DNA of 64,000 nucleotides from Cyclobacteriaceae bacterium (GTDB lineage: Bacteria > Bacteroidota > Bacteroidia > Cytophagales > Cyclobacteriaceae): positions 12,750 to 76,749 of the forward strand of contig DAXETV010000046.1 of assembly GCA_051155775.1 (NCBI GenBank), read 5' to 3'. Under the pieces are notes generated by a model. That model did no database searches and was not told where the DNA came from. It was given only the letters and a program-made list of their open reading frames with translations. Shown one piece after another: positions 11,639-64,000 of this stretch. Each line of letters begins with the position of its first letter. The first letter of the stretch is position 1. The translations under genes were made by a program, and so were the position numbers.

Positions 11639-14155
11639 ATGTTTAAAATGATCATTTATTTTATAGTATTTACTTTTTACCTTTCTTTTTTTGGGAATAT
11701 TTCAAAAGCCCAAAAGCCTTATGAATATCATACAGGTGATATCATTCAAATGCTTCGAAAGTTAAATGTATTAGGGTCGGTCTTATATGTGGCAGCCCAT
11801 CCCGATGATGAAAACACAAGACTGATTGCTTATATGGCCAACGGCGCAATGCTTAACACCGCTTATTTATCTGCAACCCGTGGTGATGGTGGTCAAAATC
11901 TGATTGGTCCTGAGATTCGTGAGCAATTGGGTATTATCAGGACGCAGGAACTATTAGCGGCACGCAGGGTAGATGGAGGTAGCCAATTTTTCAGCAGGGC
12001 TAATGATTTTGGTTATTCTAAAACACCGGATGAAACCTTTAATATATGGGACAAAGAAAAAGTGTTGGCAGACTTTGTTTGGGCAATACGCAATTTCAGG
12101 CCGGATATTATCATTACCAGATTTAATCTGGAACCAGGTTATACCCACGGACATCATACAGCATCAGCTATATTGGCTAAAGAAGCATTTGAGCTGGCCG
12201 GCGATCCTTCCTATCGACCTAATCAATTGAAACATGTTGAACCATGGAATCCGAAGAAAATATTCTGGAATACAAGTCATTGGTTCTATCGTCGCAGGGA
12301 CATTGAATTTGACACAACAGGTCTCAACAGGTTAAATGTTGGTTCTTTTAATCATTATCTTGGTAAGTCCTACACTGAAATAGCCGCTGAAAGCAGAAGC
12401 ATGCACAAAAGCCAGGGGTTTGGTGCAACCGGTAGCCGGGGTGACGAGGTTGAGTATTTTGTTCAATGGGAAGGAAAAGATACCCGGGATGTGATAGGAG
12501 GAATTGATTTTACCTGGGGTCGCATTGATGGTGGTGATAAAGTTGGATTCCACATTGATAATGCCATCATGAATTTTGATCCTGATAGACCTTATGTTAT
12601 TGTTGCTGATTTGATCAAGGCCAGAAAAGAATTACTGAAATTAAAGGATCAATACTGGAAAGATATCAAACTGAGTGAGATCAATAAATTAATAGCAGCG
12701 GTTACGGGTCTTTACCTCGAAGTAAAATCAGATGACTATACCTATACTGCCGGGGATTCCCTAAAAATAAGCATTGAAGCCATCAACAGATCACCTATTG
12801 ATATTGGGTTAGAGACGTTTACTGTAGATCAGCTTTATGAACGGGAAGAGCTAAACCAATCCCTTGAGAATAACACCGCTTTTAATTCGGATAAGGCTTA
12901 TGTACTGCCGGGGGATATCGATATATCCCAACCTTACTGGTTGAATGAGCAGGCAACATTGGGAATGTATTATGTGGATGACTTACTGCAAATAGGTAAA
13001 CCTGAGAATGCCCCCCCCCTTTCGGTGACTTTCACCATTTCCGTTGATGGAGAATTAATTGATTACACTAAACCGATAATTTTCAAACGAAATGATCCGG
13101 TGAAAGGGGAGGTATATCGGCCTCTCGCAATTACTCCGCCAGTAATGGTTGATATAATGGAAGATGTAGTCGTATTTGATGGGAAATCGGAAAAGACTAT
13201 AAATGTGCGGGTGGTGGCAGGAAAAGATAATGTAAATGGAAGTGTATTTTTGGAATTACCCGGTGGATGGCAATCTGAGCCCGCTAGTTTTGATTATTCC
13301 ATCGACTCCAAAGGAGCTGAACAGCGGTTTAAATTTGATCTAATAGCACCCAAGTCTCAGCAAGTGGGTGAAATTAAAGCAAAAATCAGGTTCCAGGGCA
13401 ATGCAAATGATCAAGGATTGGTAAATATCGAATATGATCATATACAGGATCAGGCACTCTTTCCGGAGGCCATTGCTAAGGTTGTAAAAATAGATTTGGA
13501 GAAAAGAGGCGAACATATAGGGTATATCATGGGTGCCGGCGATAAAATACCTGAAAGTTTGCGTCAAATAGGTTATGAAGTTGATTTGCTTACAGAAGTA
13601 TCAATAAACGGAAAGGCTTTAAATAATTATGATGCCATCATTTTGGGGATCAGGGCTTTAAATACTGAAGGTTGGCTGGAATTTAAGAAGGAGCAATTAA
13701 TGGATTATGTTGAACAAGGAGGAAATCTTATTGTACAATACAGTACAAGCTATCGGTTAAAGGTTGAGAATTTCAGTCCATATGAATTTAAAATATCCAG
13801 GGATCGTGTCACAGTAGAGGAAGCTGAGGTGAGGTTCCTGGCACCTGACCATCACGTTTTAAATACACCAAATAAGATTACTGATAAAGATTTTGAGGGA
13901 TGGGTCCAGGAACGCGGGCTTTACTTTTCTGATGAGTGGTCAGAAGCGTTTAAGCCGGTTTTATCCAGTAATGACCCCGGGGAAGATCCTAAGAATGGCG
14001 GATTGTTGGTTGCCAAACACGGAGCAGGATATTTCATTTATACGGGATATTCCTGGTTTCGACAACTTCCTGCAGGAGTGCCCGGCGCATATAGAATTTT
14101 TACAAATCTCATCTCAGTTGGCATGGATGAAGAAACAACTTCAAAATCACAATAA
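11639..14155 (+). CDS. large PIG-L/LmbE-family deacetylase with extended C-terminal domains
   Basis: AAHPDDEN and HGHHTAS metal-site motifs at the N-terminus, preceded by a signal sequence. About 600 further residues end in an amidotransferase-like alpha/beta module (YDAIILGIRAL...GGNLIVQY). ATG at 11639 is preferred to the TTG at 11630. Confidence 0.75.
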   Translation: MFKMIIYFIVFTFYLSFFGNISKAQKPYEYHTGDIIQMLRKLNVLGSVLYVAAHPDDENTRLIAYMANGAMLNTAYLSATRGDGGQNLIGPEIREQLGIIRTQELLAARRVDGGSQFFSRANDFGYSKTPDETFNIWDKEKVLADFVWAIRNFRPDIIITRFNLEPGYTHGHHTASAILAKEAFELAGDPSYRPNQLKHVEPWNPKKIFWNTSHWFYRRRDIEFDTTGLNRLNVGSFNHYLGKSYTEIAAESRSMHKSQGFGATGSRGDEVEYFVQWEGKDTRDVIGGIDFTWGRIDGGDKVGFHIDNAIMNFDPDRPYVIVADLIKARKELLKLKDQYWKDIKLSEINKLIAAVTGLYLEVKSDDYTYTAGDSLKISIEAINRSPIDIGLETFTVDQLYEREELNQSLENNTAFNSDKAYVLPGDIDISQPYWLNEQATLGMYYVDDLLQIGKPENAPPLSVTFTISVDGELIDYTKPIIFKRNDPVKGEVYRPLAITPPVMVDIMEDVVVFDGKSEKTINVRVVAGKDNVNGSVFLELPGGWQSEPASFDYSIDSKGAEQRFKFDLIAPKSQQVGEIKAKIRFQGNANDQGLVNIEYDHIQDQALFPEAIAKVVKIDLEKRGEHIGYIMGAGDKIPESLRQIGYEVDLLTEVSINGKALNNYDAIILGIRALNTEGWLEFKKEQLMDYVEQGGNLIVQYSTSYRLKVENFSPYEFKISRDRVTVEEAEVRFLAPDHHVLNTPNKITDKDFEGWVQERGLYFSDEWSEAFKPVLSSNDPGEDPKNGGLLVAKHGAGYFIYTGYSWFRQLPAGVPGAYRIFTNLISVGMDEETTSKSQ

Positions 14156-46680: not shown

Positions 46681-46761
46681 ATCTAATAAAAGCAACCTGG
46701 TTACATCTTTAAATAATTACGATATTTTTACAGATTGTATTTAGTGAAATCGAGTATTCCC

Positions 46762-49458
46762 ATGAAAGCTATAATAGTCCTGTTCGTTTTCTTTCTGATG
46801 GTGTTAAATATTCAAGCACAGCAATGGACCCCTGAGGATATTATTAACACCGAATATGTTTCCAATCCCATATTTTCCCCAACAGGCGATATGGTGATCT
46901 GGAGTAAAAGGACAGGCCTTAAAAAAGAAGACAAGTTTGTAAATAAACTATTCTTAACCCGACTGAATATTCTGGAGAAAGGTAAGCCACTGACTATTCA
47001 GCTTACCAGGGGAGAAAGCTCAGAAAGCAATCCGGTCTTTAGTAAAGATGGAAAAGATATTTACTTCTTGTCATCAAAAGATGAAGGTAAAAAGTTATGG
47101 AAATTAAGTGTGTATGGAGGAGAGGCTCAGGAAGTCCATGAATTTGAGCATGGAATTTCAAATATTAAGTGGCTGAATGAAGAAAAAATAGCATTTGTGA
47201 GTAATGATGGTAAGAGTTTGTATCAACAGAAATATGAGGAAAAAAAGGACAATACAAAGGTTATTGAAGATTCACTACACTGGCCGTCTAAAAGACTTTA
47301 TGCTTTCGACCTGGGAAAAAAAATCATTAACCGATTAACTGAAAATTCACATCAAATAACTTCATATGATGTTTCTGAAGATGGAAGATATGCAGTCATT
47401 AAGCAAAATATGAGCCCTCACTATCCCACGGATGGTCAACCCAAGCCTCAGGTTATACTTTATGATTTTGAGGGAAATAATTCAACGTTAATCCTCAAGG
47501 ATTTTAAGGAGCCTGGAAATTTTAAATTTATAAAAGATGGTGAGGGATTTTATTTTTTTGCGCTTACCACCTCAGACCCAAAGTGGAATATTGCGGGGAA
47601 AAACGAGCTCTATTTTTATGATATAGAGGAATCCCAATACTCAAAAGTTCCGCTGGATTGGGATAATGGCGCAGGATATTCATTCTACGCTGAAAATGAT
47701 TGGTTGATACTACCCCTTGCTAATGGACCCCTAAGAAAGGTTGGGCTTTACAAGGAAGATGAGGATGATTGGAGGTCCTTAAACATTGATTTTGAAGAAA
47801 TGCAGGAGCATGTCTCGATTCTGGCAATGTCAGCAGACAATAAAATTATTTTCGAATATTCTACGGCCTCCAAATTACCGCAATATTTTGTTGGCCGACT
47901 AGCGATCAAAAATAACAAGGCAAGATTATCTGAGGCAGTCGAGTTTATATCATTGAACAATAATATTAAAAAGAAACCAACAGCCAATTCTGAAGTGATC
48001 TATTGGCAGGGTGCAAATGGTGATGAGGTAAATGGCATTTTATATTATCCTAAGCACTACGAAAAAGGTAAAAAATACCCTTTAATACTATCGATACATG
48101 GTGGGCCAACCGGAGTTGATCAGGATATATGGCGTGAACGTTGGTCAACTTATCCGCAGATTTATACTGATAAAGGAGCTTTTGTTTTAAAACCAAATTA
48201 TCATGGCTCTGGTCTGCATGGACAGGAATTTGCCGAGAGCATCAAAAAGGGTAAGTATTATGAATTAGATCAAATTGACATATTTAACGGAATACAGCAT
48301 TTAAACAAATTAGGCCTCATCGATATGGACCGGTTGGGAACGATGGGATGGTCAAATGGCGCCATTCTTACTACATGGTTGACACTAAAATACCCGGATA
48401 TGTTTAGAGTAGCTGCACCCGGGGCTGGAGATATCAATTGGACGTCTGATTATGGTACCTGCCGCTTTGGGGTAACATTTGATCAATATTACTTTGGAGG
48501 AGCCCCCTGGGATGATACCAATGGAAAACATTTTAATGAATGGTATATTAATAATTCACCCTTATTTGATATAGAAAAGATAAAAACACCAACCATTATA
48601 TTTCATGGGAGCAAGGATCGTGCTGTACCCCGAGATCAGGGTTGGGAATATTATCGTGGATTACAACAGGTTGGTAAAGCCCCTGTGAAATTTTTTTGGT
48701 TCCCGGACCAGCCGCATGGGCTAAGGAAAATAACCCACCAGTTGAGAAAAATGAAAGAAGAAATAAAGTGGATTGATAAGTACCTGTTTGGTAAGGATGA
48801 CTCTGAGAACGAAGCCCTTAAGGATGATAGCCCGATAGCATACGCTATCCAAAAAACAAGCATGAAAAAAGAAGGAAATTTTTATGGGGTATTGGTTAAC
48901 AATCAGCTTATTCCCGAAACTCATCGGATTAAAAAGGATTCTATTGCTATATCCTGTTTTGAGCTAACTAATGTTCAGTATGCGTCATATCATTCAGATC
49001 ATAAATATCCTGATGGGAAAGATAACTTTCCTGTTACGGGCTTAGCAAAATCTGATATTGAAGGGTATTTGGGATGGATCAATAAGCTAACAGGTGAAAA
49101 ATATAGATTACCAAACCAAAAAGAAGCGCAGGAATTTCATAAAAAAGCTAAAGATTGGCATAAGGAAGAAAACACATTAAATCATTGGGCTGGTTATACA
49201 TTAACACCCAAGGATGCGAATGCTCTGTTAAGTAAAATCGAAGATCAAGACTTGGATTTATTAAAGGAAGTCGGCAGCCATAAACCTCAAAAAGTGGGAG
49301 AAGCTTTTGTTTATGATCTTGTTGGAAATGTAGCAGAATATGCGGTTACTGAAAATGATTTAGTTAAATATGGGTTCGATGCACATACTTTTGTAGATAC
49401 ATTTAATATGGATGACAATAATTCCAAATTAATTGGTGTGCGTTTAATCAGACAATAA
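46762..49458 (+). CDS. S9 family serine peptidase (beta-propeller + alpha/beta domain) fused to a C-terminal FGE/SUMF1-like domain
   Basis: Signal peptide. Catalytic triad context GWSNGA, FHGSKDRAVP, DQPHG. The C-terminal 190 aa carry ELTNVQY, PVTG, YLGWINKLTGEKYRLPNQKEA and YDLVGNVAEY (FGE-sulfatase-like motifs). ATG at 46762 is preferred to the TTG at 46735. Confidence 0.75.
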   Translation: MKAIIVLFVFFLMVLNIQAQQWTPEDIINTEYVSNPIFSPTGDMVIWSKRTGLKKEDKFVNKLFLTRLNILEKGKPLTIQLTRGESSESNPVFSKDGKDIYFLSSKDEGKKLWKLSVYGGEAQEVHEFEHGISNIKWLNEEKIAFVSNDGKSLYQQKYEEKKDNTKVIEDSLHWPSKRLYAFDLGKKIINRLTENSHQITSYDVSEDGRYAVIKQNMSPHYPTDGQPKPQVILYDFEGNNSTLILKDFKEPGNFKFIKDGEGFYFFALTTSDPKWNIAGKNELYFYDIEESQYSKVPLDWDNGAGYSFYAENDWLILPLANGPLRKVGLYKEDEDDWRSLNIDFEEMQEHVSILAMSADNKIIFEYSTASKLPQYFVGRLAIKNNKARLSEAVEFISLNNNIKKKPTANSEVIYWQGANGDEVNGILYYPKHYEKGKKYPLILSIHGGPTGVDQDIWRERWSTYPQIYTDKGAFVLKPNYHGSGLHGQEFAESIKKGKYYELDQIDIFNGIQHLNKLGLIDMDRLGTMGWSNGAILTTWLTLKYPDMFRVAAPGAGDINWTSDYGTCRFGVTFDQYYFGGAPWDDTNGKHFNEWYINNSPLFDIEKIKTPTIIFHGSKDRAVPRDQGWEYYRGLQQVGKAPVKFFWFPDQPHGLRKITHQLRKMKEEIKWIDKYLFGKDDSENEALKDDSPIAYAIQKTSMKKEGNFYGVLVNNQLIPETHRIKKDSIAISCFELTNVQYASYHSDHKYPDGKDNFPVTGLAKSDIEGYLGWINKLTGEKYRLPNQKEAQEFHKKAKDWHKEENTLNHWAGYTLTPKDANALLSKIEDQDLDLLKEVGSHKPQKVGEAFVYDLVGNVAEYAVTENDLVKYGFDAHTFVDTFNMDDNNSKLIGVRLIRQ

Positions 49459-53240: not shown

Positions 53241-53402
53241 TTAACTATAATATTGACCTGTGGTGAAGCTTACATAGGTAGGTTCAAAACCATTTCCGCC
53301 CTTAGGAAGCGATTCAGTCATAGAAGCATCCATCGGTTGAATCTCAGGAGTATTCCAGACTTTTTTATATGATTTAATAGTGTCTAATCTTTTCATCATC
53401 AT
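53241..53402 (-). CDS. candidate lasso-peptide precursor (A), 53 codons, not in ORF track
   Basis: Hand translation of the minus strand: MMMKRLDTIKSYKKVWNTPEIQPMDASMTESLPKGGNGFEPTYVSFTTGQYYS. It starts in a +1 frame inside the last 29 nt of the cyclase gene. Aromatic-xxPx(I/L) leader motif (WNTPEI), Thr-Glu-Ser junction, single acidic residue in the putative core, C-terminal Ser. Confidence 0.6.
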   Translation of the reverse strand: MMMKRLDTIKSYKKVWNTPEIQPMDASMTESLPKGGNGFEPTYVSFTTGQYYS

Positions 53403-55203
53403 ATTTTTTACAAAAAAAGTACATTAAATATTGTTTCGCAAGTTTTCCTGGTTCAATATTATCAAAATTATTATAATATTTGATTATTCTATTGTGATCT
53501 ACTATTTTATTTAGATTATTATTAACAGATATGATTTTATGATTTTCAAATATTTGTTCTTTTTCCCTTTTATGAACCATATGGAGTTCTGGTGTATTAA
53601 AACCTGTTTTTTGATTTCTATTTATTATATAAGTGGGTAATAAATCTTTAAATATTTTCTTAAATATATCCCTTTGACTATAAAAAATTGTATAAAGTAA
53701 AGAAGTTTGTGAAAGAACAGCACGAATTAACTTACGGTCAAACATTGGGTACCGGTATTCTATCCCAAAATAATCTGATGTGTTAGCGTTATTGGTAAAA
53801 AAATTATTGTGGATATAAACTTCAAGCGTGCCAATCATTCGATTTATATCAGTATTTGATTTATGTCTTTTCAACATAACCCTGGTTATTTTTTTACGAA
53901 CTATCTTTTTATATCTTTTTTTTAAAGGTATTAGTTTATCATAATTTATATTAAAGTGGAATAAGGTGTTGTAATATATCCTCATAACCAATTTTATAAT
54001 TGGAATCGGTAACCACTTAGTCTTCGATTTATGGTTCATTTTATACCTTTTTGTAACGCATTGATCACCACCCATTCCTGATATAAGAGCAGACACACCC
54101 TTTTTATTAGCTTTTTCAAATAAGACCTGTGAAATAACGGCACTTTTGCTGTTAGGGACACCGGCGTTCAATTCCAGTGATCTTTGTATTTCAATCCAAT
54201 AGTTTATATGATGGTCTTCATGAATATATTCATGTTCAAATTTATTTGGGTAGAATTTTAAAAAAGCGTTAACATAATCGAATACATCATCAGTATCTTT
54301 ATTCAGGATAGCATCTTTGGTATTATGGGAAAAAGTAAAAATTTTTTCTTGATCGCTGAGCGGAAGTTTTTTTAAAATAGCGCAAATACTCGATGAATCT
54401 AACCCACCACTTAGTTCCGCACCAACAGCTCCCCATGATCTGGCTCTTTTTTTTACAGCTTCCTCAAACAAATAATTAATCTCATCCATGTATTCAGGCA
54501 CATTGCTGGATCTTTGATTAACTTCATTTTCTAATGACCAATAAATTGATTTATAAATCTGAGTATTTGACGGTAGAGTCAACCATTCGGCGGGTAGAAT
54601 AGGAAAGATTTCTTTAAAGTAGGTTTTATCAAATGGAATAATTTTTGGGGCAATATGTTCTAAAATAGCATCATAATTAACCGTCTTTTTAACAAATGGC
54701 AGGTTAATAATACACTTTACTGAAGAAGCAAAAATGAAATATCCTTTATCTTCATAATAAAATAACGGTTTAATACCCATATGGTCCCGGACGCAAAACA
54801 GCTCTTTTTTACTGTTATCCCATATAGCAAAAGCAAAATCACCTTCCAGGTATTTTGGACTCTCCTTACCCCATTTTTCATAAGCTTTTAAGATGAAATG
54901 TGCGTCTGCCATTTTATTGGCGGTTGATACTTCAATATTTAATTTTGATATAAGCTCTTCCCGGTTATCTATCCTGCAATCTGCTACAATGATATTTCCA
55001 GATGATTTATCGATGTTGGGGAGACTAATGAACTTTGATTCGGGTGTATTATATCGATGTCTCTGTCCAAGAACAATATTGGAATTTTCCAGGATATTTT
55101 CTTCGTGATGGAACCTCGTAGTCGAATTTTCCAACATGGTTTTAACATCCCTGGTATTAACTTGAGTTTTATTCTTATATAATATTCCACATATAGTACT
55201 CAT
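53374..55203 (-). CDS. asparagine-synthetase-like lasso peptide cyclase (C)
   Basis: AsnB fold with PP-loop ELSGGLDSSSICA. The N-terminus is MSTICGI, so the Cys is not residue 2 and there is probably no Ntn glutaminase activity. Sits next to the B2 and B1 genes. Confidence 0.8.
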   Translation of the reverse strand: MSTICGILYKNKTQVNTRDVKTMLENSTTRFHHEENILENSNIVLGQRHRYNTPESKFISLPNIDKSSGNIIVADCRIDNREELISKLNIEVSTANKMADAHFILKAYEKWGKESPKYLEGDFAFAIWDNSKKELFCVRDHMGIKPLFYYEDKGYFIFASSVKCIINLPFVKKTVNYDAILEHIAPKIIPFDKTYFKEIFPILPAEWLTLPSNTQIYKSIYWSLENEVNQRSSNVPEYMDEINYLFEEAVKKRARSWGAVGAELSGGLDSSSICAILKKLPLSDQEKIFTFSHNTKDAILNKDTDDVFDYVNAFLKFYPNKFEHEYIHEDHHINYWIEIQRSLELNAGVPNSKSAVISQVLFEKANKKGVSALISGMGGDQCVTKRYKMNHKSKTKWLPIPIIKLVMRIYYNTLFHFNINYDKLIPLKKRYKKIVRKKITRVMLKRHKSNTDINRMIGTLEVYIHNNFFTNNANTSDYFGIEYRYPMFDRKLIRAVLSQTSLLYTIFYSQRDIFKKIFKDLLPTYIINRNQKTGFNTPELHMVHKREKEQIFENHKIISVNNNLNKIVDHNRIIKYYNNFDNIEPGKLAKQYLMYFFCKKYDDEKIRHY

Positions 55204-55268
55204 ATCAGTTTATTTGATTTAAGGTAAAGGGAATTGTAAAGCGTGATAGGAGTCAATAGTTCATTCAG

Positions 55269-55712
55269 TCAGGAAAATTTTACCAGCAAATTAAAACCGT
55301 TTCCATTTCCGCCAGTAACGTGTATTTTTCCACTCCTTAGCCAGGCATGTGCATCTATAATTTTGATTTTAGAATTAGTAACGCCAAAATAAACGGTTCC
55401 TGGCAAACCCCTTAACCTAAGCATTAATTTACCTGCAATTGCTTGTGCAAGACATTTGCTATTCCACGGTAAGTTTTTACTTCCTATTTTAATGAACTTT
55501 GAAAGGAGATAAGACATTTTTTCTCTTTGAAAATCAAGCATGGATGGACTATCAACATTTTTCTCGCCAAGAATTTTAACGATTAGCCTAAAAGGAAAAA
55601 AAAATATTATTAACTCAGATAAAATCAAAAAAAATACAACCTCAGCTAATAATAGCTTATCCCTTAAGCCCAGTTGTAAAAATTTGATCACTATCCTAAC
55701 CAACCTAACCAT
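55269..55712 (-). CDS. lasso peptide leader peptidase B2 (transglutaminase-like Cys protease)
   Basis: 147 aa with NSKCLAQAIA (catalytic Cys) and IIDAHAWL (His), typical of McjB C-terminal-domain homologues. Confidence 0.8.
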   Translation of the reverse strand: MVRLVRIVIKFLQLGLRDKLLLAEVVFFLILSELIIFFFPFRLIVKILGEKNVDSPSMLDFQREKMSYLLSKFIKIGSKNLPWNSKCLAQAIAGKLMLRLRGLPGTVYFGVTNSKIKIIDAHAWLRSGKIHVTGGNGNGFNLLVKFS

Positions 55713-55722
55713 ATTAATATTT

Positions 55723-56595
55723 TCAAACTTTTTCTAATGGTATATGCTCGTTAATTTTCAAGTATTCAAGTTTTTCCATTACATGGCCGTGGTTTTTGGT
55801 TAGTTCATTTATTTGGTCTTTATTTAAATAGTCATTGAAAGTGCCAACTTTTCCATTTCTAAAAAAAGTCTTACAATATATCATTTTTTCACCAAATCCT
55901 TTTTCTTGTTCCTGTTTCTGAAGGGTGTCAATATTACTATTTTCAATGGCTTTGATGATTGACTTTTCATCATAATCTAGTTCTGCAAAGGCCACTGCTT
56001 CTGAGAAAGTCTTAAGCGGGTGATTTACCATGTCTTCATACTTTATTATTTTAACTGGGAATTCTTCGTGACAAGTCCAACTTAGATAATGACCACTCCA
56101 TGTTAAGAGTATTTGTCTTAATTGATTGGTCTGTCTTTTGCCTTCTCCACAAAACGAAAATTTGGGATTATTTAAAATTTTCAATGTGTTTTTAAAATTA
56201 TCATGACCCGAATGATGTGCAAAGGATATACATATATCCAGGGGATTTCTTACAAAATATAAGGCCTTTTTTGTAGCTTCTTTAGGGATTAGAGGTTTGC
56301 CATTTGGTAAATAAGTATAGGCATCATGTATTTTACAAAACCTTTTTTCCTTCAAAGATTTACTGAAATGAATATAAGCTTCTGGTCTTAATAAATCACA
56401 TTCGTCAGGAGATAAATCTCCACTATCATATCCCAGGGGTTCATCTAATAAATGACGTGCACTGGCAATTGGTCCTCCAATTAAATTATTAATATCAACC
56501 GGATTGTTGGATTTCTTCAGCAGGTTGGTTAAAAAAACCCGGAACCAGGTATTACCGGATTTAGGATAAGAAGCCAACCAGATAATATTACCCAT
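55723..56595 (-). CDS. PAPS-dependent sulfotransferase
   Basis: 5'-PSB loop SYPKSGNTWFR and 3'-PB motif FVRNPLD. Confidence 0.8.
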   Translation of the reverse strand: MGNIIWLASYPKSGNTWFRVFLTNLLKKSNNPVDINNLIGGPIASARHLLDEPLGYDSGDLSPDECDLLRPEAYIHFSKSLKEKRFCKIHDAYTYLPNGKPLIPKEATKKALYFVRNPLDICISFAHHSGHDNFKNTLKILNNPKFSFCGEGKRQTNQLRQILLTWSGHYLSWTCHEEFPVKIIKYEDMVNHPLKTFSEAVAFAELDYDEKSIIKAIENSNIDTLQKQEQEKGFGEKMIYCKTFFRNGKVGTFNDYLNKDQINELTKNHGHVMEKLEYLKINEHIPLEKV

Positions 56596-57508
56596 CGATT
56601 AATTCAATATTTAGGTGATTCAATAATTCACCAATCATTTTCGGTAAAAAGGAAATTTCATTTCCTGGTTTTAAAATCCTGTACATTGGTACAACACTTG
56701 CCAATTTCATACTCAGTTCGAAATGAGGTTTTATAATGTCCAGCCCTTTTAAGAATTGAAATCTAAACGTGTGGTTTTTTAATGCTTGAAATTTTGCAGG
56801 TCCAGTAATGTCATTAATAGATATTTCAGGTTTATTGTGGTTGTTTAAAATAAAAATCCGATCAATAAGCGATTCATTTTTTGAATAAAAATCTTCAGGA
56901 TTTATTTTTATACATCGTTTTTCTAATGCCTCACGAATTTTTTCGAAATCATTTGGCTCCATTTCAAGAGCTTTTAGTGAATCGATCCACAATTTCATTT
57001 GAGGATATCCGGAAATAACCCGTGGAACACCCTGTTGATCAAAGCTTATTAATGAAATATCATCATTAATTACTTTAAAACCTTTATTTCTAAAAGCAGC
57101 GGCAGTAGTAGATTTACCTGCACCAGATTTACCAGCAAACAGAACAGCTTTCTCATCAATTAGTACAGAGCTTGCATGAAGGACTAATTGCTTTCTTTGT
57201 AGCAACAAAGCTCCAAAAGCAGAACCCAAAAGAAATAATCGTATATCTTTATCGTCACCACCCAAAGGTTCTATTGTAATTCTGTTTCCGTTTTCAACAA
57301 AATATTTGGCGATATTATCTACTTTCAGTAAGAGTTGATTAGGCGAAGCCCAGTATCTTATTCCCTTTGATCTGGCATTTTTTAACAGTTCAGGTACGCT
57401 TCCAAAGGAGATTGTTATGTCTTCGTTTGTAAGATTTGCTTGAATGAATTCTGGAATAAATAATTCAGATAAAATATTAAGACCAAAAGCATGATATTTA
57501 TAAGACAT
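56588..57508 (-). CDS. HPr-kinase-related (HprK C-terminal-like) peptide kinase
   Basis: P-loop FAGKSGAGKSTTAAAF in about 300 aa. This gene type accompanies phosphorylated lasso peptides (paeninodin-type clusters). Confidence 0.7.
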   Translation of the reverse strand: MSYKYHAFGLNILSELFIPEFIQANLTNEDITISFGSVPELLKNARSKGIRYWASPNQLLLKVDNIAKYFVENGNRITIEPLGGDDKDIRLFLLGSAFGALLLQRKQLVLHASSVLIDEKAVLFAGKSGAGKSTTAAAFRNKGFKVINDDISLISFDQQGVPRVISGYPQMKLWIDSLKALEMEPNDFEKIREALEKRCIKINPEDFYSKNESLIDRIFILNNHNKPEISINDITGPAKFQALKNHTFRFQFLKGLDIIKPHFELSMKLASVVPMYRILKPGNEISFLPKMIGELLNHLNIELIDG

Positions 57509-57510
57509 AA

Positions 57511-57792
57511 TTATTGAGATACTGAGATTAAATTTTTTTCATTAAGATGATTAAGAAATTCAAATACTTCTTTTGTGCATTTTTCTTTACTTACATCATA
57601 TTCTTGCAAGAGTGTATTTATAATATCAGAAATTTTTTTAGGATTTGATATCATTTCCCATATATCAGTTGCAATTGGATTCATCTTATAATATTCACCA
57701 TTATCGATGCTCATTAGCACGGCTTCATTGTCTAATTTACTTGAAATTTGATCCTCAGCCTGACGAACAATCATTTCTTCGGTTAAACTCAT
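57511..57792 (-). CDS. PqqD-family RiPP recognition element (lasso B1)
   Basis: 93 aa. ...EAVLMSIDNGEYYKMNPIATDIWEMI...EVFEFLNHLNEKNLI pattern of PqqD/RRE proteins. Confidence 0.8.
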   Translation of the reverse strand: MSLTEEMIVRQAEDQISSKLDNEAVLMSIDNGEYYKMNPIATDIWEMISNPKKISDIINTLLQEYDVSKEKCTKEVFEFLNHLNEKNLISVSQ

Positions 57793-57812
57793 TTATTCAA
57801 GATTATTATATG

Positions 57813-57820
57813 CAAATATA
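57813..57820 (-). promoter_or_regulatory. -7 box TATATTTG (minus strand) upstream of the lasso operon
   Basis: Exact TAnnTTTG, 20 nt upstream of the B1 ATG, in the 102-nt divergent intergenic region. Confidence 0.4.
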
Positions 57821-57894
57821 TTTAGGCTATCCATTTATCATAATGAATTTTGTCTTAGGTATTAATCTTTACAGACATGATAGATATTAAATAA

Positions 57895-59079
57895 ATGCAA
57901 AAAGATATAAATATAATTAATTTTCCCATTGAAACTCAAATATTGATAGAGCTCCTCAAGGATTTGCTTCAAGATCATTGTGCTAATAAATCTTTTTTCA
58001 AATTTCAGGATACAAAACACCCTTTAAAATTATTGCAACGACATAGGTTGAGCAGCTATTTTCACAAGATCCAGTCCAGGCACGAAATGGACCAAACACT
58101 CAGAGATCAATTAAAGATTAACTATTTAAAAAATATAAAATTTCAATTAGCCTTAGTAAAAGAGTTTCTCGAGATAAAAAAGTTGTTGGATGTTAATGAA
58201 GTTAAATTTTTAACCCTTAAAGGGCCAGTGTTATCTCACATCCTGTATGAGGATCCGTACACAAGAAATTTTAAGGATATTGATGTGTTGATATCACAGG
58301 AAGACATTGAAAAAACTGAAGGTATTCTGATTAATGCAGGTTTTGAGGTTCTAGATGATATTGTATTCAAAGGTCTTGATAAGAATAAAAGAGATTATTT
58401 ATTAAAATCCCGGACGCATATGGTTTATAGAAAAACCAGTAGTCAAGGGAAACCACTCATTTTAGAATTGCATTGGTCCTTAGTGAGTCCGTTTTCCTTA
58501 TTTCCCTTTTCTTTTCAGTATTTATGGGAAAATTCAATGGATGTGACCATTCATAATGTCCAAATAAAAACCATCAATCACGAATTAAACTTTGCATATC
58601 TTCTTATTCATGGATCTATACATCAGTGGGTGAGGCTGCAATGGCTTGTTGATATAATAAATTATGAGAAAAAAGAAAGCTTAATCGATGAATTTGAACT
58701 AAAGAAAATAATTAAAGAAGGCCAACTTGAAATATCTGTAGCGCAGGCACATAATTTATATCAATTACTCTTTGGGATAGAAAGTAGGTTTTCACAATTA
58801 CATCATAAAAATTGGAACAGTAGGATAATAACAAATTTTGCTCTTAGTGAAATCTCGAGAGTAAATCAATATGATAGTTCTGAATACAATAACTTAAATA
58901 GCTTTATTAACTTGATTCTGCTTAAAAATGATCTGAAACACTACATAGAGGTGATGAAGAACTTTATTATTTCATTGCAGGATTGGAAGTTAGTTCAATT
59001 ACCATCTTTTATGTTTCCATTATATGCAATTGGCCGACCGATATTTTATTTAATGAGAAAGTTTAAGGTTAAAAGGTAA
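57895..59079 (+). CDS. nucleotidyltransferase-family protein (NTP_transf_5-like)
   Basis: LTLKGPVLSHILYEDPYTRNFKDIDVLI core, with the G-x-x-x...D-x-D arrangement of uncharacterised nucleotidyltransferases commonly found beside lasso kinases. Confidence 0.65.
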   Translation: MQKDINIINFPIETQILIELLKDLLQDHCANKSFFKFQDTKHPLKLLQRHRLSSYFHKIQSRHEMDQTLRDQLKINYLKNIKFQLALVKEFLEIKKLLDVNEVKFLTLKGPVLSHILYEDPYTRNFKDIDVLISQEDIEKTEGILINAGFEVLDDIVFKGLDKNKRDYLLKSRTHMVYRKTSSQGKPLILELHWSLVSPFSLFPFSFQYLWENSMDVTIHNVQIKTINHELNFAYLLIHGSIHQWVRLQWLVDIINYEKKESLIDEFELKKIIKEGQLEISVAQAHNLYQLLFGIESRFSQLHHKNWNSRIITNFALSEISRVNQYDSSEYNNLNSFINLILLKNDLKHYIEVMKNFIISLQDWKLVQLPSFMFPLYAIGRPIFYLMRKFKVKR

Positions 59080-60221
59080 TCCACTATCTTATCCAATAAA
59101 TAAAGGTATAATGCCAGAAAGAAGACGTTGATATGAATGCCAAACCAAAAGAAAGTAATGGTTGATAGGGTACACAACAGTATTAGGTAGCTCATTAAGC
59201 CTATGAGCTGTTTCAGAAATGGATATCTATGCAGGTATTGGCTTATAATTTTTTCAATAACATCTTGAGGATAGAAAACAATCCAGGATAAAAAGAAATA
59301 GCCAATGAAAAGATAGCCCCAAAAAAGAATATCAACATATACATGCTGATTCTGAAGGTTTACTAGAGCGTTAATTAAAATGACGGGCCCACTGGTAATT
59401 TCGAATATTGTTTCATGCATATCCCGGTCAAAGAAATCACCTACCACTACAATTTTATTATTGACAAATTCAACGACATCCTCTTCAGGCAAATAGAGCA
59501 GTTCTCCAAGATTGATTGGATTAAACCCCTTTTCCTGATTCGATATATCTTTTTGAAGGATATTGAACTCCAGAATGAAATGATTTAAAGTGGTCCATTT
59601 GTCGAATCTGACGAATGGGCCTGCTTTGCCTGCTTTATCATTACATATATTTTCGTGGACGATCAGCGGTGTTAGCTTTAAGGAGTCATAATATAACTGA
59701 TATTTGTAAACCCCATCAAAAATACTTCCGGTCAAATAATCGGACAGTCCGGTTTGTACATTAGTGAAAATGATTTCTTGAGGCGTGTTATCTTCATTAA
59801 GATGTGAGGAAAGAATAATATCGTTACGCTTTGATAGTTGCTGTCCCAACAAGCTATCAAATGATGTTTTACCTAAAAAATTTATATCACAGATGATAAA
59901 CCTGGTCTCTACATCATTTCGATTTAAAATCTCAAAAAATCTTGCCAGCTTCTCTCTGTCGGTAATGGTCTGGTTGCCAATAGGAAAGCCATAGCTATCC
60001 ACCTTATCTATCAGGGCCAGGTCATTAGAGACATTGATTAATGCGAAATTTTTAGATGGAGGAATTTCTCTGAAGGGTAACTTCAACCAGGAAGTAATCC
60101 ATATCATCATTTTTTCATCCCCGGCCAACCAGGGTAAACTCATCAACCAGAAGGTAAGCAGAAAAAGTACACCAGTGTTTACAAGGGAACCTACCCAGAT
60201 AAAAAGTTTACTTCTTTTCAT
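59046..60221 (-). CDS. CHASE2-like membrane sensor protein without output domain
   Basis: N-terminal TM. Extracytoplasmic domain with FALINVSNDLALID...YGFPIGNQTITDREKLARFFEIL...FIICDINF (CHASE2-like D-x-D and WPxxR-equivalent pattern). Three to four C-terminal TM helices, then the protein ends. Confidence 0.5.
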   Translation of the reverse strand: MKRSKLFIWVGSLVNTGVLFLLTFWLMSLPWLAGDEKMMIWITSWLKLPFREIPPSKNFALINVSNDLALIDKVDSYGFPIGNQTITDREKLARFFEILNRNDVETRFIICDINFLGKTSFDSLLGQQLSKRNDIILSSHLNEDNTPQEIIFTNVQTGLSDYLTGSIFDGVYKYQLYYDSLKLTPLIVHENICNDKAGKAGPFVRFDKWTTLNHFILEFNILQKDISNQEKGFNPINLGELLYLPEEDVVEFVNNKIVVVGDFFDRDMHETIFEITSGPVILINALVNLQNQHVYVDILFWGYLFIGYFFLSWIVFYPQDVIEKIISQYLHRYPFLKQLIGLMSYLILLCTLSTITFFWFGIHINVFFLALYLYLLDKIVDYLLTLNFLIK

Positions 60222-61002
60222 TGGATAATTGAGCTAGTGCCAACTCTATACCCATCAACTGACAGCGATCATACAATTCATCCAAGAACATATAAATATC
60301 TTCTGCTTTATTGGTTTTTGTGATGGAAACAATTTCTTTTAAAAAATTGAGTTCTATGTATTTAAAATTTATTGGGCATAAAAAAGTAGATTTTTGATCG
60401 AGCGAATTGTAATAAAAAAGGCGGTATTCCTCAGGTGTTTGAGGGTTAATGGGTAGGCCATCAATAGATAATAATTCATTTTTTATTATTATAAGTGTGT
60501 CTTTATTGTAAGAAAGCTTTTTATTAACCAACTCATCCATATAACGATATTGGATATAAAAGAAATTTTTTTCATTCATTGGATAAGCGGCGCTTGACAC
60601 ATTAATTGTAAGCCTATCACCGACAAAGGCAAATTCATTCCCGAAAAATTTTTTAAAGTCCAGGTCATTATTGATTCCTCCGGAACGGGTACTCATCCTT
60701 CCACGCATAGGCTTTATTATTGATTTTAATGCATATTCAAGGTCGTTTGAGTTGCTATTTTCTTGCTCAGGTTTTAATATAAATCTTCCTTTATCAGGAT
60801 CTAAAACTGCAGCTATTGATTTTGGGTCTCCAAATTTCAGTATTTCATCTGATGATATTTTTTGGCCTCTGGTTAAGGTTTTGTTATTCGAAGCCAGCTT
60901 GACAATTCCCTTTACATGGATGACAACATATTCCTGGGCTGATATTTGACTGGAGAATAATAAGGCCTGAAATAATAAGAGACATTTTAACGGTATTTTC
61001 AT
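60208..61002 (-). CDS. secreted hypothetical protein (weak FecR-like N-terminal beta segment)
   Basis: Signal peptide LLLFQALLFSSQISAQ. VVIHVKGIVKL...LTRGQKISSDEILKFGDPKSIAAVL resembles FecR-domain starts. Overlaps the downstream CHASE2-like gene by 14 nt. Confidence 0.4.
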   Translation of the reverse strand: MKIPLKCLLLFQALLFSSQISAQEYVVIHVKGIVKLASNNKTLTRGQKISSDEILKFGDPKSIAAVLDPDKGRFILKPEQENSNSNDLEYALKSIIKPMRGRMSTRSGGINNDLDFKKFFGNEFAFVGDRLTINVSSAAYPMNEKNFFYIQYRYMDELVNKKLSYNKDTLIIIKNELLSIDGLPINPQTPEEYRLFYYNSLDQKSTFLCPINFKYIELNFLKEIVSITKTNKAEDIYMFLDELYDRCQLMGIELALAQLSNEKK

Positions 61003-61004
61003 GA

Positions 61005-64000
61005 TTAATAGATTGTAAAATCCCTTTTTAAGTTTTCTTCCCTTGAGGTGGGTACTTGCTTGCCATCTGATAATCTTACTACCTGTTCTGTGACATATTG
61101 TTGAATCTCTGTGATGGAGTATTTTCTATCCCGGTTAAGGTCCGCTCTACGGGTCTCTATCCCCTGTAAAATGCATGAAGTAAACAATCCATTAGAGGAA
61201 TTGACACCTTCAAGTGCGAATTCAGTTGCACCGGCAGCAGAGATAACTGTAGCACCGGTTCCTTTTTTTAAATCACCAAATAATGTTTTTGATAGCTCGA
61301 GCGTGTTTTCTAATCCAAAACTGTTTTCTTTCATTTTCACCAGCTTACCGGTAGATCTGAAAGCCACAGCTCCGGTTTGCTGAACTTCGTTATTAGCATC
61401 TTCTATCTCGTCCTCATCTAATTCACCGGAATGGCAGGTATCCATAAAGAGTGCCTTATTTCGACTTTTTATTCCATCAAGAATCTCTTGTAAATCCTCA
61501 TAAGGGAGTCCTCTGCCTGCCGGATTAGAAAAATCCATTTCATGGGTCGCAAAGTAATAATTGTATTCATCATCTAACACACCATGACCAGCAATGAATA
61601 TCAAAACAACATCATCGATATTCGCTTCTGATAAGAACTTTTTAAGGTCTAATATATTTGCTTTGGTCGCTTTATCATTTATGAGTGCTTTATGGTATAC
61701 ATTTTCGAATGAGGACGAGTTTTTTAATGTATTGATCAGATCACTGGCGTCCTTTGAAGCGAATGTTAGATTATAATTGCTTTGTTTGTAATCGGAAACG
61801 CCGATTGTTACCAGGTATAAACATGGTTTGTAATATGCCCCCACATATTTTATCTCAAAGCTTTCGGGGATAGATTCGAGACCACTTTTGTTGATTGCTG
61901 AGATTTTAATTTCATTTATACCGGAAGACAACTGTAAATCGATGGTTTCGCTCCATGATTGTAACGATTCACTACCTATATCCATTCCTTTTGAGCCAAA
62001 TACCGGTACATCATTTACGTAAACATGTATTTTTTTTAGTTCCTGATGGTTTCCGTCAGCAGCTATTGGTAATCTAAAATTTTGAGATTTGGTTACATAA
62101 GGAATTTTTTCATAATTAATTTTTACAGTAGGTAAATTGTAAGAACCTTCCAAATTATCTTCTGTAAATCCTAATCGTTTGAGCCTCTTCTTGTAAGCAG
62201 ACCTGTAAGAAGAAACCAGTTTGTCAGAAGCATAGCCCAGCCTTTCTGCCACAATATCCGGTCGGTTAAATTTTAATTCAACTTGTTGAAGGGGCAGTAT
62301 ATTACCATCATCTTTAAAAGCAATAGCCATGCTGGCATTTTTCGAAGAGGTGTAATAATAATCTGGCGTATAGGTGATGTAGTCCGAATTATTGATTAAA
62401 CACATACTTGCAACTTTCTTCTTTTGAGTGATATCATATAGGGTTATCTCACCTTGCCTATTGGTTGTGATCAGGTATTTCCCATCTTTACTGAAACATG
62501 CATCAGTTATTAAACCTATCTGATTGTCTTTTATGACCGCTCTATCTCCTTTGATTAATCTTAAAGAATATCCATCCCATGATACATGATAATCTTTATA
62601 ATCATACTTATCTTCTAAAGACACTTTAGTTTCTCCTTTTACCTTTTTTGATTTACCTGTTTTTCTATCATATAGCCTTACATCATCGTCACTTTTCAGC
62701 ATAGACATGCCTATTCCAGCATCGTCAGTGGATTTATATTTAGCGTAGATTTCGTTGGGGTTGCCAGAAAATTTCACCCAGGTAAATTCCTTATTCTTCT
62801 CTAGTATTGATTTTAGTAATCTGCCGTTTTTGAAATTCCATACTTTAAAAAAGCTGGTGCCGGGAGATGTTGTTGCTATATACTTCCCATTGTTGCTTAT
62901 GTCAATCTGATTTATATTTGGTGATCTGTCAAATTCCCTAACCAGTCTACCTGTAGTAATATCCCACATGGTCATGTTTTTTCTTTCAGAACCCACAAGA
63001 ATATGTTTTCCATCGGGCATGGCATCTACAGACAGCGCGGGCCTTACAAATCCCTCGAGTTTCCTGAATATTCTACCAGTCTCCATGTCCCAAAGCTTAA
63101 TTGAATGTTGGTCATCAGATGAGGCAGCAGTCTTATAATCCGGTGACATAGCTATTGAGTTTAGCCAGGCAACGCTTCCACCTTTGAATTCTTTAACCAA
63201 TGGTGGTTCATAGCCCTGGACCTCTTTCAACTTGCCATCAGGGAATTCAGCTTTTTCCATATCATATACATTGATGGAGTATTTTTTATTAAGTATGATT
63301 TTGGTTTGATCATCATTAAATACTGCCCGCGCATTAGAATAAGCGATCATCCATCTTTTTGGCTTTTTAGGATTTACAAACTTTTTGCCATCCGGGGAGA
63401 TGTCGACTAAGGAGACTGTTGAGTTGCCTGTTTCTTCTTCTTTGTCCTTGGCTGCAGCCATAGGCATGTACATATTTTGGGAGATTAAGACGGTTTTTCC
63501 ATCTTTCATAAACGCTATGTTACTGTAGTCAATGATGAAGAAATCAAGCATGTCCTTTCCGATGTTACCTTTTGCAATATTTGTAGCGATGGAAAAGCCA
63601 CTAAGCACACCATAAATGTAAGCCTTGGTCAGGCCTGAATTTTTATAATAGTTTAAAATATCATCAGTTTTTTTTCCATTTTCCAGATCCACGATAATCA
63701 ATTCAACATCATTTGTTTTTTGTCCTCCTACCACTGCTGTTTGTTGATTGGGATGAATGCTTATGGCTCTGATTTCTGAAGTAGCTGCTTCAATAGATTT
63801 TTCGGGTTTACCGGTGTTTATGTCCCATTTTTTTATTATTTTATCTTTGCCTCCTGATAGAAAAAAGAGATTGTTTTCATAAACTTCAATTGTATTAACT
63901 GCGCCTTCGTGGCCTTCGATGAAGTGAATGGGCTCATCTTTATTGTTCACATCCCAAACTATGATTTTTCCATCGGCATCCCCTGTAATAATTTTATTGC
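61005..64000 (-). CDS. WD40-repeat protein with C-terminal caspase (peptidase C14) domain (5' partial, continues right of window)
   Basis: Frame is open through 63951-64000 (...NKIITGDADGKIIVWDV...). Several GH...WD-type repeats (GHEGAVNTI...KKWD, SIKLWD, MTMWD, FKVWN). C-terminal caspase fold with His in FIAGHG (codon 61584-61586) and Cys in DTCHSG (codon 61434-61436). Confidence 0.8.
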   Translation of the reverse strand, partial: NKIITGDADGKIIVWDVNNKDEPIHFIEGHEGAVNTIEVYENNLFFLSGGKDKIIKKWDINTGKPEKSIEAATSEIRAISIHPNQQTAVVGGQKTNDVELIIVDLENGKKTDDILNYYKNSGLTKAYIYGVLSGFSIATNIAKGNIGKDMLDFFIIDYSNIAFMKDGKTVLISQNMYMPMAAAKDKEEETGNSTVSLVDISPDGKKFVNPKKPKRWMIAYSNARAVFNDDQTKIILNKKYSINVYDMEKAEFPDGKLKEVQGYEPPLVKEFKGGSVAWLNSIAMSPDYKTAASSDDQHSIKLWDMETGRIFRKLEGFVRPALSVDAMPDGKHILVGSERKNMTMWDITTGRLVREFDRSPNINQIDISNNGKYIATTSPGTSFFKVWNFKNGRLLKSILEKNKEFTWVKFSGNPNEIYAKYKSTDDAGIGMSMLKSDDDVRLYDRKTGKSKKVKGETKVSLEDKYDYKDYHVSWDGYSLRLIKGDRAVIKDNQIGLITDACFSKDGKYLITTNRQGEITLYDITQKKKVASMCLINNSDYITYTPDYYYTSSKNASMAIAFKDDGNILPLQQVELKFNRPDIVAERLGYASDKLVSSYRSAYKKRLKRLGFTEDNLEGSYNLPTVKINYEKIPYVTKSQNFRLPIAADGNHQELKKIHVYVNDVPVFGSKGMDIGSESLQSWSETIDLQLSSGINEIKISAINKSGLESIPESFEIKYVGAYYKPCLYLVTIGVSDYKQSNYNLTFASKDASDLINTLKNSSSFENVYHKALINDKATKANILDLKKFLSEANIDDVVLIFIAGHGVLDDEYNYYFATHEMDFSNPAGRGLPYEDLQEILDGIKSRNKALFMDTCHSGELDEDEIEDANNEVQQTGAVAFRSTGKLVKMKENSFGLENTLELSKTLFGDLKKGTGATVISAAGATEFALEGVNSSNGLFTSCILQGIETRRADLNRDRKYSITEIQQYVTEQVVRLSDGKQVPTSREENLKRDFTIY

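Follow-up and report, generated by a model that had tools for sequence, protein, structure and literature searches.

In a 64,000-nucleotide stretch of contig DAXETV010000046.1 from a Cyclobacteriaceae bacterium (assembly GCA_051155775.1, positions 12,750 to 76,749 of the forward strand; hereafter the window), the genes of a lasso peptide pathway lie together with genes for a kinase related to HPr kinase (K), a sulfotransferase of the type dependent on 3'-phosphoadenosine 5'-phosphosulfate (PAPS; ST) and a nucleotidyltransferase-fold enzyme (N). With good confidence the region was assigned to the paeninodin/pseudomycoidin type of lasso peptide cluster, and the analysis favours a product that carries a phosphate, a sulfate and probably a phosphate-linked sugar. 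The pair of K and ST is a widespread coupled module which recurred in 75 of 82 independent loci, an association far beyond chance, and its near-constant adjacency and its fusions predict that sulfation is kinase-dependent and takes place on the leader-bearing precursor.

A preliminary description of the interval 55723-59079 had predicted a multiply decorated lasso peptide from the presence of the three tailoring enzymes, and all three genes were found where it had placed them. The interval contained four genes and its flanks made up the full lasso peptide cluster. The general prediction was supported in part, by the homology of K and N to a pseudomycoidin-type cluster and by the location of ST within the operon, while the groups added and their sites stay inferential. 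The features of the cluster are given below by coordinates in the window.

53241-53402, minus strand: precursor gene A, 53 residues; an open reading frame (ORF) identified from a reading of the DNA and conserved after C in the nearest related locus
53374-55203, minus strand: lasso cyclase C (asparagine-synthetase-like macrolactam synthetase), 609 residues; Pfam Asn_synthase and GATase_7
55269-55712, minus strand: B2 leader peptidase (transglutaminase-like Cys protease), 147 residues; NCBIfam lasso_biosyn_B2 and Pfam Transglut_core3
55723-56595, minus strand: PAPS-type sulfotransferase ST, 290 residues; Pfam Sulfotransfer_1
56588-57508, minus strand: HprK/PEPCK-like P-loop kinase K, 306 residues; weak HprK matches, motifs and fold
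57511-57792, minus strand: B1, a PqqD-type recognition element (RRE) for peptides made on ribosomes and modified after translation (RiPPs), 93 residues; Pfam PqqD and NCBIfam lasso_PqqD_Bac
57793-57894, no strand: intergenic region of 102 bp between the B1-K-ST-B2-C-A operon and N, divergent
57895-59079, plus strand: PsmN-like nucleotidyltransferase-fold enzyme N, 394 residues; Pfam NTP_transf_5 (PF14907)

The six minus-strand genes formed one tightly packed operon at 53241-57792 in the order B1-K-ST-B2-C-A, and N was transcribed divergently from it. Their assignment to a single operon was based on the gaps between B1 and K (2 nt), ST and B2 (10 nt) and B2 and C (65 nt) and on two overlaps, that of the ST start codon with the end of the K gene (8 nt) and that of A with the 3' end of C in another frame (29 nt). 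All of the ORFs in the cluster were intact and retained the invariant catalytic residues. The nearest genome locus, in a Roseivirgaceae metagenome-assembled genome (MAG; locus L002), had the same synteny and the whole cluster including the precursor, with an ST that was 93% identical. K was 100% identical to a protein from a Cyclobacteriaceae MAG, and these matches place the source among the Cytophagales (Bacteroidota), in a Cyclobacteriaceae or Roseivirgaceae lineage.

Kinase and sulfotransferase genes across genomes

Relatives of ST are numerous, as a word search returned more than 7,700 matches that were typically 50% identical and 287 residues in length, and an exhaustive search at E<=1e-30 gave 1,969 clusters at 50% identity. 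Relatives occurred in at least 561 GTDB species genomes. The neighbourhood of ST was compared in 82 non-redundant genome loci from more than ten phyla, which spanned the Bacteroidota, several proteobacterial classes, Chloroflexota, Acidobacteriota, Cyanobacteria, Verrucomicrobiota, Gemmatimonadota, Negativicutes and others. An HprK-like kinase gene was located directly upstream of ST and on the same strand in 75 of the 82 loci, and the kinase stop codon was no more than 61 nt before the 5'-phosphosulfate-binding (PSB) motif of ST in 70 of these 75. This motif begins approximately 30 nt into the ST gene and the two genes therefore overlap or abut in those loci. Seven loci were exceptions to the kinase-then-sulfotransferase order, including two that were cut by a contig end and two with the order reversed. 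Lasso genes were also frequent near ST, as 64 of the loci had B1, 60 had C and 48 had B2, and B1 was directly downstream of ST in 36 loci.

Fusion proteins were surveyed at the protein level with Pfam and BLASTP among the 150 best representatives of the ST family. Three K-ST fusions (597, 651 and 656 residues), one fusion in the ST-K order (607 residues) and one between ST and PqqD (405 residues) were identified, all of them metagenome representatives (P0283, P0271, P0327, P0247 and P0249). Near-obligate adjacency combined with fusions in both orders is the usual sign of enzymes that act together, and the joining of ST to a PqqD leader-binding domain points to action on a leader-bearing precursor. 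Given its position inside the operon between K and B2, its locked association with K across phyla and these fusions, ST very probably acts on the precursor as a tailoring enzyme.

Two further patterns were seen in the locus set. Many ST loci included a second kinase paralogue (L028, L063, L066, L070, L072, L054 and L044) and several precursor genes were often present in a locus (L061 had as many as five and L050 four), which suggests a division of labour among the kinases. In a Bacteroidetes MAG (L009, 9076-10828) a K-ST pair stood alone, flanked by genes for succinate dehydrogenase on one side and by a LiaF/histidine-kinase/LytTR set on the other, and no lasso core gene was present within 10 kb of it.

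The window ST matched Pfam Sulfotransfer_1 with 73 bits against a cutoff of 22. Its PSB loop (PKSGNTW, residues 11-17) and 3'-phosphate-binding (PB) motif (RNPLD, residues 116-120) had been described as intact, and both were invariant, as were H90 and S124, in an alignment of 23 sequences from several phyla. H90 is the likely catalytic residue. The C-terminal FFRNGKVG follows the pattern FFRxGxxG, for which the class motif is RKGxxG, and the motif Arg was present in at least 90% of the 23 sequences. R47, R70 and K88-x-H90-D91 in the central region were specific to the family in an alignment of the window family. The closest solved structures by profile were Teg12, Teg14 and StaL (E 1e-22 to 1e-14), followed by the cytosolic sulfotransferases (SULTs).

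The kinase K gave only weak matches to HprK models, including Hpr_kinase_C (24 bits against 33.3), TIGR00679 (21 against 240) and HprK_rel_A (38 against 200). As these scores fall below the thresholds of the HPr kinase families, K is regarded as HprK-related and not as an HprK/P orthologue, and its relatives were placed in ScmC (PF27840) by precomputed Pfam assignments. The core signature consists of H111 (LHASS in the window), GKSGAGKST at residues 126-134 and D149-D150, of which H111, G131-K132-S133 and D149-D150 were invariant among 31 homologues. An AlphaFold model of K with a mean predicted local distance difference test (pLDDT) score of 96 had phosphoenolpyruvate (PEP) carboxykinases as its top Foldseek matches over the whole length; HprK belongs to the PEP carboxykinase fold class. 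Along its full length K shared 32% identity (E 5e-52) with the kinase encoded in a pseudomycoidin-type locus of Robertmurraya beringensis (L088). As the preliminary description had stated, HprK homologues phosphorylate the C-terminal Ser of linear paeninodin-type precursors (PMC8498205), and kinases of this family can also polyphosphorylate that residue (PMC8498205, PMC9266682, PMC6993621).

The divergently transcribed N matched Pfam NTP_transf_5 with 153 bits against a cutoff of 31, and K109-G110 and D128-x-D130 were invariant in 33/33 homologues. The same R. beringensis locus encodes a nucleotidyltransferase that was 31% identical to N over the catalytic core (E 1e-18). N is a fast-diverging protein, for which a word-based homologue search found three proteins only. 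Its AlphaFold model, made from a four-sequence alignment, had a pLDDT of 47 and was too poor for fold comparison. The D128-x-D130 pair is equivalent to the residues replaced in the inactive D134A/D136A mutant of PsmN (PMC6993621), the pseudomycoidin enzyme required for the addition of one or two hexoses to the phosphate of the precursor phosphoserine (PMC8498205, PMC9266682, PMC6993621). The earlier statement that a pseudomycoidin nucleotidyltransferase-like enzyme further modifies the phosphoserine is correct, the group attributed to PsmN being a hexose (PMC6993621). N was present in 33 of the 82 ST loci and, in several of those from Bacteroidales, lay beside the gene for cyclase C.

Lasso core enzymes, precursor and surroundings

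Cyclase C had the lasso peptide isopeptide bond-forming cyclase NF033535 as its best NCBIfam match (347 bits). B2 matched lasso_biosyn_B2 with 72.7 bits against a cutoff of 33, and C87 and H122 (within AHAW) were invariant among 48 aligned family members. B1 matched Pfam PqqD with 72 bits and NCBIfam lasso_PqqD_Bac with 95.4 bits against a cutoff of 80.

The precursor consists of a 30-residue leader, MMMKRLDTIKSYKKVWNTPEIQPMDASMTE, and a core, SLPKGGNGFEPTYVSFTTGQYYS, which terminates in QYYS. The core includes three Tyr (Tyr13, Tyr21 and Tyr22), three Ser and three Thr, in line with the earlier count of three Tyr with several Ser and Thr. The leader motif WNTPEI fits [W/Y]xxPx[LVIFA], with Trp at -15 and Thr at -2 relative to the core. 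The pattern [W/Y]xxPx[L/V/I/F/A] is the motif recognised by lasso RREs, a crystallised paeninodin-like leader has the same Trp at -15, and Thr at -2 is paeninodin-like (PMC13381572). The precursor gene in the Roseivirgaceae locus (13185-13346) likewise follows the cyclase gene and encodes a nearly identical leader and a core ending in QYFS, with the penultimate Tyr replaced by Phe. A precursor gene after the cyclase gene was seen in many related loci too.

The GC content was 0.31-0.33 over 54-60 kb of the window versus 0.36-0.40 in the surrounding chromosome, a low value across the cluster that would fit with acquisition by horizontal transfer. A sequence that matches TAnnTTTG, the consensus for the -7 promoter element of Bacteroidetes, was located (TATATTTG) at 57813-57820 on the minus strand, 21 nt 5' of the B1 start codon. 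The consensus was not enriched in the window (61 found versus 83 expected), so that TATATTTG is compatible with a promoter and does not constitute evidence for one. A second fit, TAATTTTG at 53463-53470 on the minus strand, lies within the 3' end of C, where it precedes the start codon of the precursor gene by 61 nt, and could be an internal promoter that boosts transcription of the precursor. Scans of the window for sigma-70 promoters and terminators gave counts at or below those expected by chance, and go no further than being compatible with the operon as proposed.

The precursor ORF is followed by leuS. Beyond it a plus-strand gene at 46735-49458 encodes a 907-residue protein with a signal-peptide-like N-terminus, a PD40 beta-propeller, a Peptidase_S9 domain and an FGE-sulfatase-like domain, and this gene also adjoins the cluster in the Roseivirgaceae locus. 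Lasso isopeptidases are S9-family enzymes. Such a role is doubtful for this gene because leuS and an ORF of 266 residues intervene, it is on the opposite strand and its FGE-sulfatase-like domain is unrelated.

On the other side of the cluster, a three-gene minus-strand operon at 59046-63950 encodes a 981-residue protein with WD40 repeats and a caspase domain (Peptidase_C14), a 264-residue protein with no family match and a 391-residue multi-pass membrane protein, and the gene for the latter overlaps the N gene by 34 nt at their 3' ends. This operon was conserved in the Roseivirgaceae relative and is probably unrelated to the lasso pathway.

Proposed pathway and the sulfate acceptor

Gene content, motifs and synteny were observed, and every enzymatic step of the pathway is inferred from them by homology. 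B1 would bind the WNTPEI motif of the 30-residue leader. ST, as a functional unit with K, would add sulfate from PAPS before the leader is removed, with a hydroxyl of the C-terminal tail (Tyr21, Tyr22 or Ser/Thr) as the first candidate acceptor and the phosphate of the phosphoserine as the second. The PsmN-like N would attach a further group to the phosphate, which is a hexose in pseudomycoidin. B2 would cut off the leader after Thr-Glu and C would close the Ser1-Glu10 isopeptide ring, to give the expected lasso peptide with its phosphate, its sulfate and probably its phosphate-linked sugar.

The precursors associated with ST were used to narrow down the acceptor. A set of 66 precursors from 51 ST loci was curated by the leader motif and the rule of Trp at -15, and their leaders followed the pattern [K/R]xWxxPx-hydrophobic. 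A C-terminal Ser was present in 56 of the 66, most commonly in a "PS" ending, and the earlier proposal that the QYYS end fits the kinase agrees with this pattern. As read from these precursors, the C-terminal Ser is the sole positionally conserved handle and also the predicted target of K. The acceptor could be a hydroxyl of the tail, reached by ST in a complex shared with leader, B1 and K, or it could be the phosphoserine.

A number of observations weigh against the assignment of the region and its proposed product. The 347-bit score of cyclase C is below the 525-bit cutoff of NF033535, no exporter or transporter gene was found adjacent to the cluster, and no biochemical data for any ST of the family were found in the literature searched. 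If cleavage is canonical, the core has its first acidic residue at Glu10; the spacing is alike in the Roseivirgaceae locus, and about ten of the 66 precursors showed this pattern too when aligned by Trp at -15. The rings of characterised lasso peptides have 7-9 residues (PMC12214591). The window ring would comprise ten residues, or nine (with Glu9 as acceptor) if cleavage shifts by one, and either the cleavage site or the ring would be atypical. Approximately 15% of the ST-linked precursors had no C-terminal Ser, 25 of the 66 (38%) had no Tyr, and in 18 of the 51 loci Tyr was absent from every precursor. In a neighbour-joining tree of 96 cluster kinases the ST-adjacent kinases did not form a clade of their own; branches were long, ST-adjacent and other cluster kinases were intermixed, and the tree gave no sign of a specialised subfamily of kinases. 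N was absent within 10 kb in 49 of the 82 ST loci and is therefore not obligatorily linked to ST. On the same count the sugar added by N was rejected as a general acceptor for ST.

An alternative that is possible, if tentative, is that ST O-sulfates one or more of Tyr13, Tyr21 and Tyr22 independently of K. The nearest solved relatives, Teg12, Teg14 and StaL, and the aryl SULTs sulfate phenols, a Tyr-Tyr pair adjoins the terminal Ser in the window core, and family precursors commonly have a Tyr at a distance of 2-6 residues from their C-terminus. The Tyr-free precursors and loci counted above mean that Tyr sulfation cannot be the general role of ST, which overturns it as a family rule and leaves the acceptor unreadable from sequence. 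The Tyr-to-Phe replacement in the QYFS end of the Roseivirgaceae precursor also speaks against this explanation, and the adjacency and fusions of K and ST would be unexplained if ST worked independently of K. Aromatic or bulky residues in lasso tails also act as steric plugs, and the paeninodin tail contains Tyr in a cluster that lacks ST. Tyr O-sulfation may nevertheless occur in the window peptide itself.

It is unlikely, by our estimate, that phosphorylation primes the peptide for ST in the strict sense that the phosphate or polyphosphate installed by K at the C-terminal Ser is itself sulfated, to form a phosphosulfate anhydride of a kind not known in peptides. This explanation would fit the C-terminal Ser as the only positionally conserved feature of the precursors and the near absence of ST genes that lack a kinase directly upstream or fused to them. 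The phosphate in pseudomycoidin is, moreover, already a handle for a second enzyme (PMC6993621). However, a shared complex bound to the leader and B1 would explain the adjacency and fusions equally well, such an anhydride would be labile, and N would compete for the same phosphate in the window cluster. No Sulfotransfer_1 enzyme is known to use a phosphate acceptor.

It is very improbable that ST and/or N do not act on the peptide (as mere neighbours or in immunity or donor synthesis) or that the cluster is silent or decayed, for which the missing adjacent exporter, the atypical position of the ring acceptor and the inactivity of LppN in a heterologous host (PMC13381572) could be cited, as this is opposed by the location of ST within the operon between K and B2, synteny kept across more than ten phyla, the ST-PqqD fusion, the intact ORFs with invariant catalytic residues and the retention of the entire cluster, precursor included, in the Roseivirgaceae genome.

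The preferred explanation remains that of a leader-dependent pathway in which K and ST work as a unit. A far-reaching version, in which K and ST are one two-step machine in hundreds of bacterial species and the window peptide perhaps also has a 10-residue ring larger than any characterised, would be a long shot.

Relation to known systems and significance

Paeninodin from Paenibacillus dendritiformis C454 (padeCAKB1B2D) is similar in its split B1 and B2, its asparagine-synthetase-like cyclase and an HprK-like kinase that acts on the C-terminal Ser (PMC8498205), as well as in the leader motif at -15, Thr at -2 and the Ser at the end of the core (PMC13381572). The paeninodin cluster is from the Bacillota, has an ABC exporter and contains neither a sulfotransferase nor a nucleotidyltransferase (PMC6993621), whereas the window cluster is from the Bacteroidota, has the order B1-K-ST-B2-C-A and no adjacent exporter, and has its first acidic core residue at position 10 instead of 9. 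The pseudomycoidin cluster of Bacillus pseudomycoides (psmCAKB1B2ND) includes homologues of K and N and shares the DxD pair with the window N but lacks a sulfotransferase. The Robertmurraya beringensis (Bacillaceae) locus mentioned above has the order C-A-K-B1-B2-N-D, which is the published pseudomycoidin architecture (PMC6993621), no sulfotransferase and a precursor that ends in Ser and has a WxxP leader with Trp at -15 and Thr at -2. In both, N is on the same strand as B2 and the exporter and is located between these two, while the window N is divergent.

Teg12, Teg14 and StaL are similar to ST in that they belong to Sulfotransfer_1, depend on PAPS and modify a peptide natural product. Their substrates are the phenols of non-ribosomal glycopeptide aglycones. 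They differ from ST in lacking any coupling to a kinase or an RRE, and only about half of the profile aligns. RaxX is a linear peptide that is Tyr-sulfated by the tyrosylprotein-sulfotransferase-like RaxST, with no lasso fold, kinase or RRE. The RaxX/RaxST system of Xanthomonas is comparable to the window cluster as the known example of a bacterial ribosomal peptide that is sulfated (PMC13381572). Clusters for linear polyphosphorylated peptides (LPPs) in the Bacillota share an HprK-like kinase, a discrete RRE and an uncharacterised NTP transferase with the window cluster, and are often located beside paeninodin-like lasso clusters (PMC13381572). They differ in having a signal-peptidase-like leader peptidase, no cyclase or B2 and no described sulfotransferase; the motif in LPP leaders is YxxP, and the Ser that is phosphorylated lies close to the N-terminus of the core.

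The gene combination itself is not new and the window holds one of many such clusters. An HPr kinase together with a sulfotransferase was reported in lasso clusters of anaerobes in 2014 (PMC4289311), and a sulfotransferase with a nucleotidyltransferase was described for paeninodin-like clusters of Firmicutes by Zhu et al. 2016, as that study is summarised in PMC8498205. The same gene set was listed for Pontixanthobacter in a genome comparison from 2023, and a 2026 paper referred to HprK kinases and NTP transferases as "typical secondary modification enzymes" of paeninodin-like pathways. Solved lasso structures are available only from Pseudomonadota, Actinomycetota and Bacillota (PMC12214591).

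The preliminary description had been aware of no characterised sulfated lasso peptide, and none was found in the full-text literature searched, the coverage of which excludes most subscription journals. Known decorations of lasso peptides are few and include phosphate, hexose, methyl, acetyl, citrulline, hydroxyl and D-amino acids. Lasso peptides are prized as very stable scaffolds. The coupling of K and ST provides a testable prediction of kinase-dependent sulfation across hundreds of clusters and, if this is true, sulfation would offer a charged, enzyme-installable handle for the engineering of lasso peptides.

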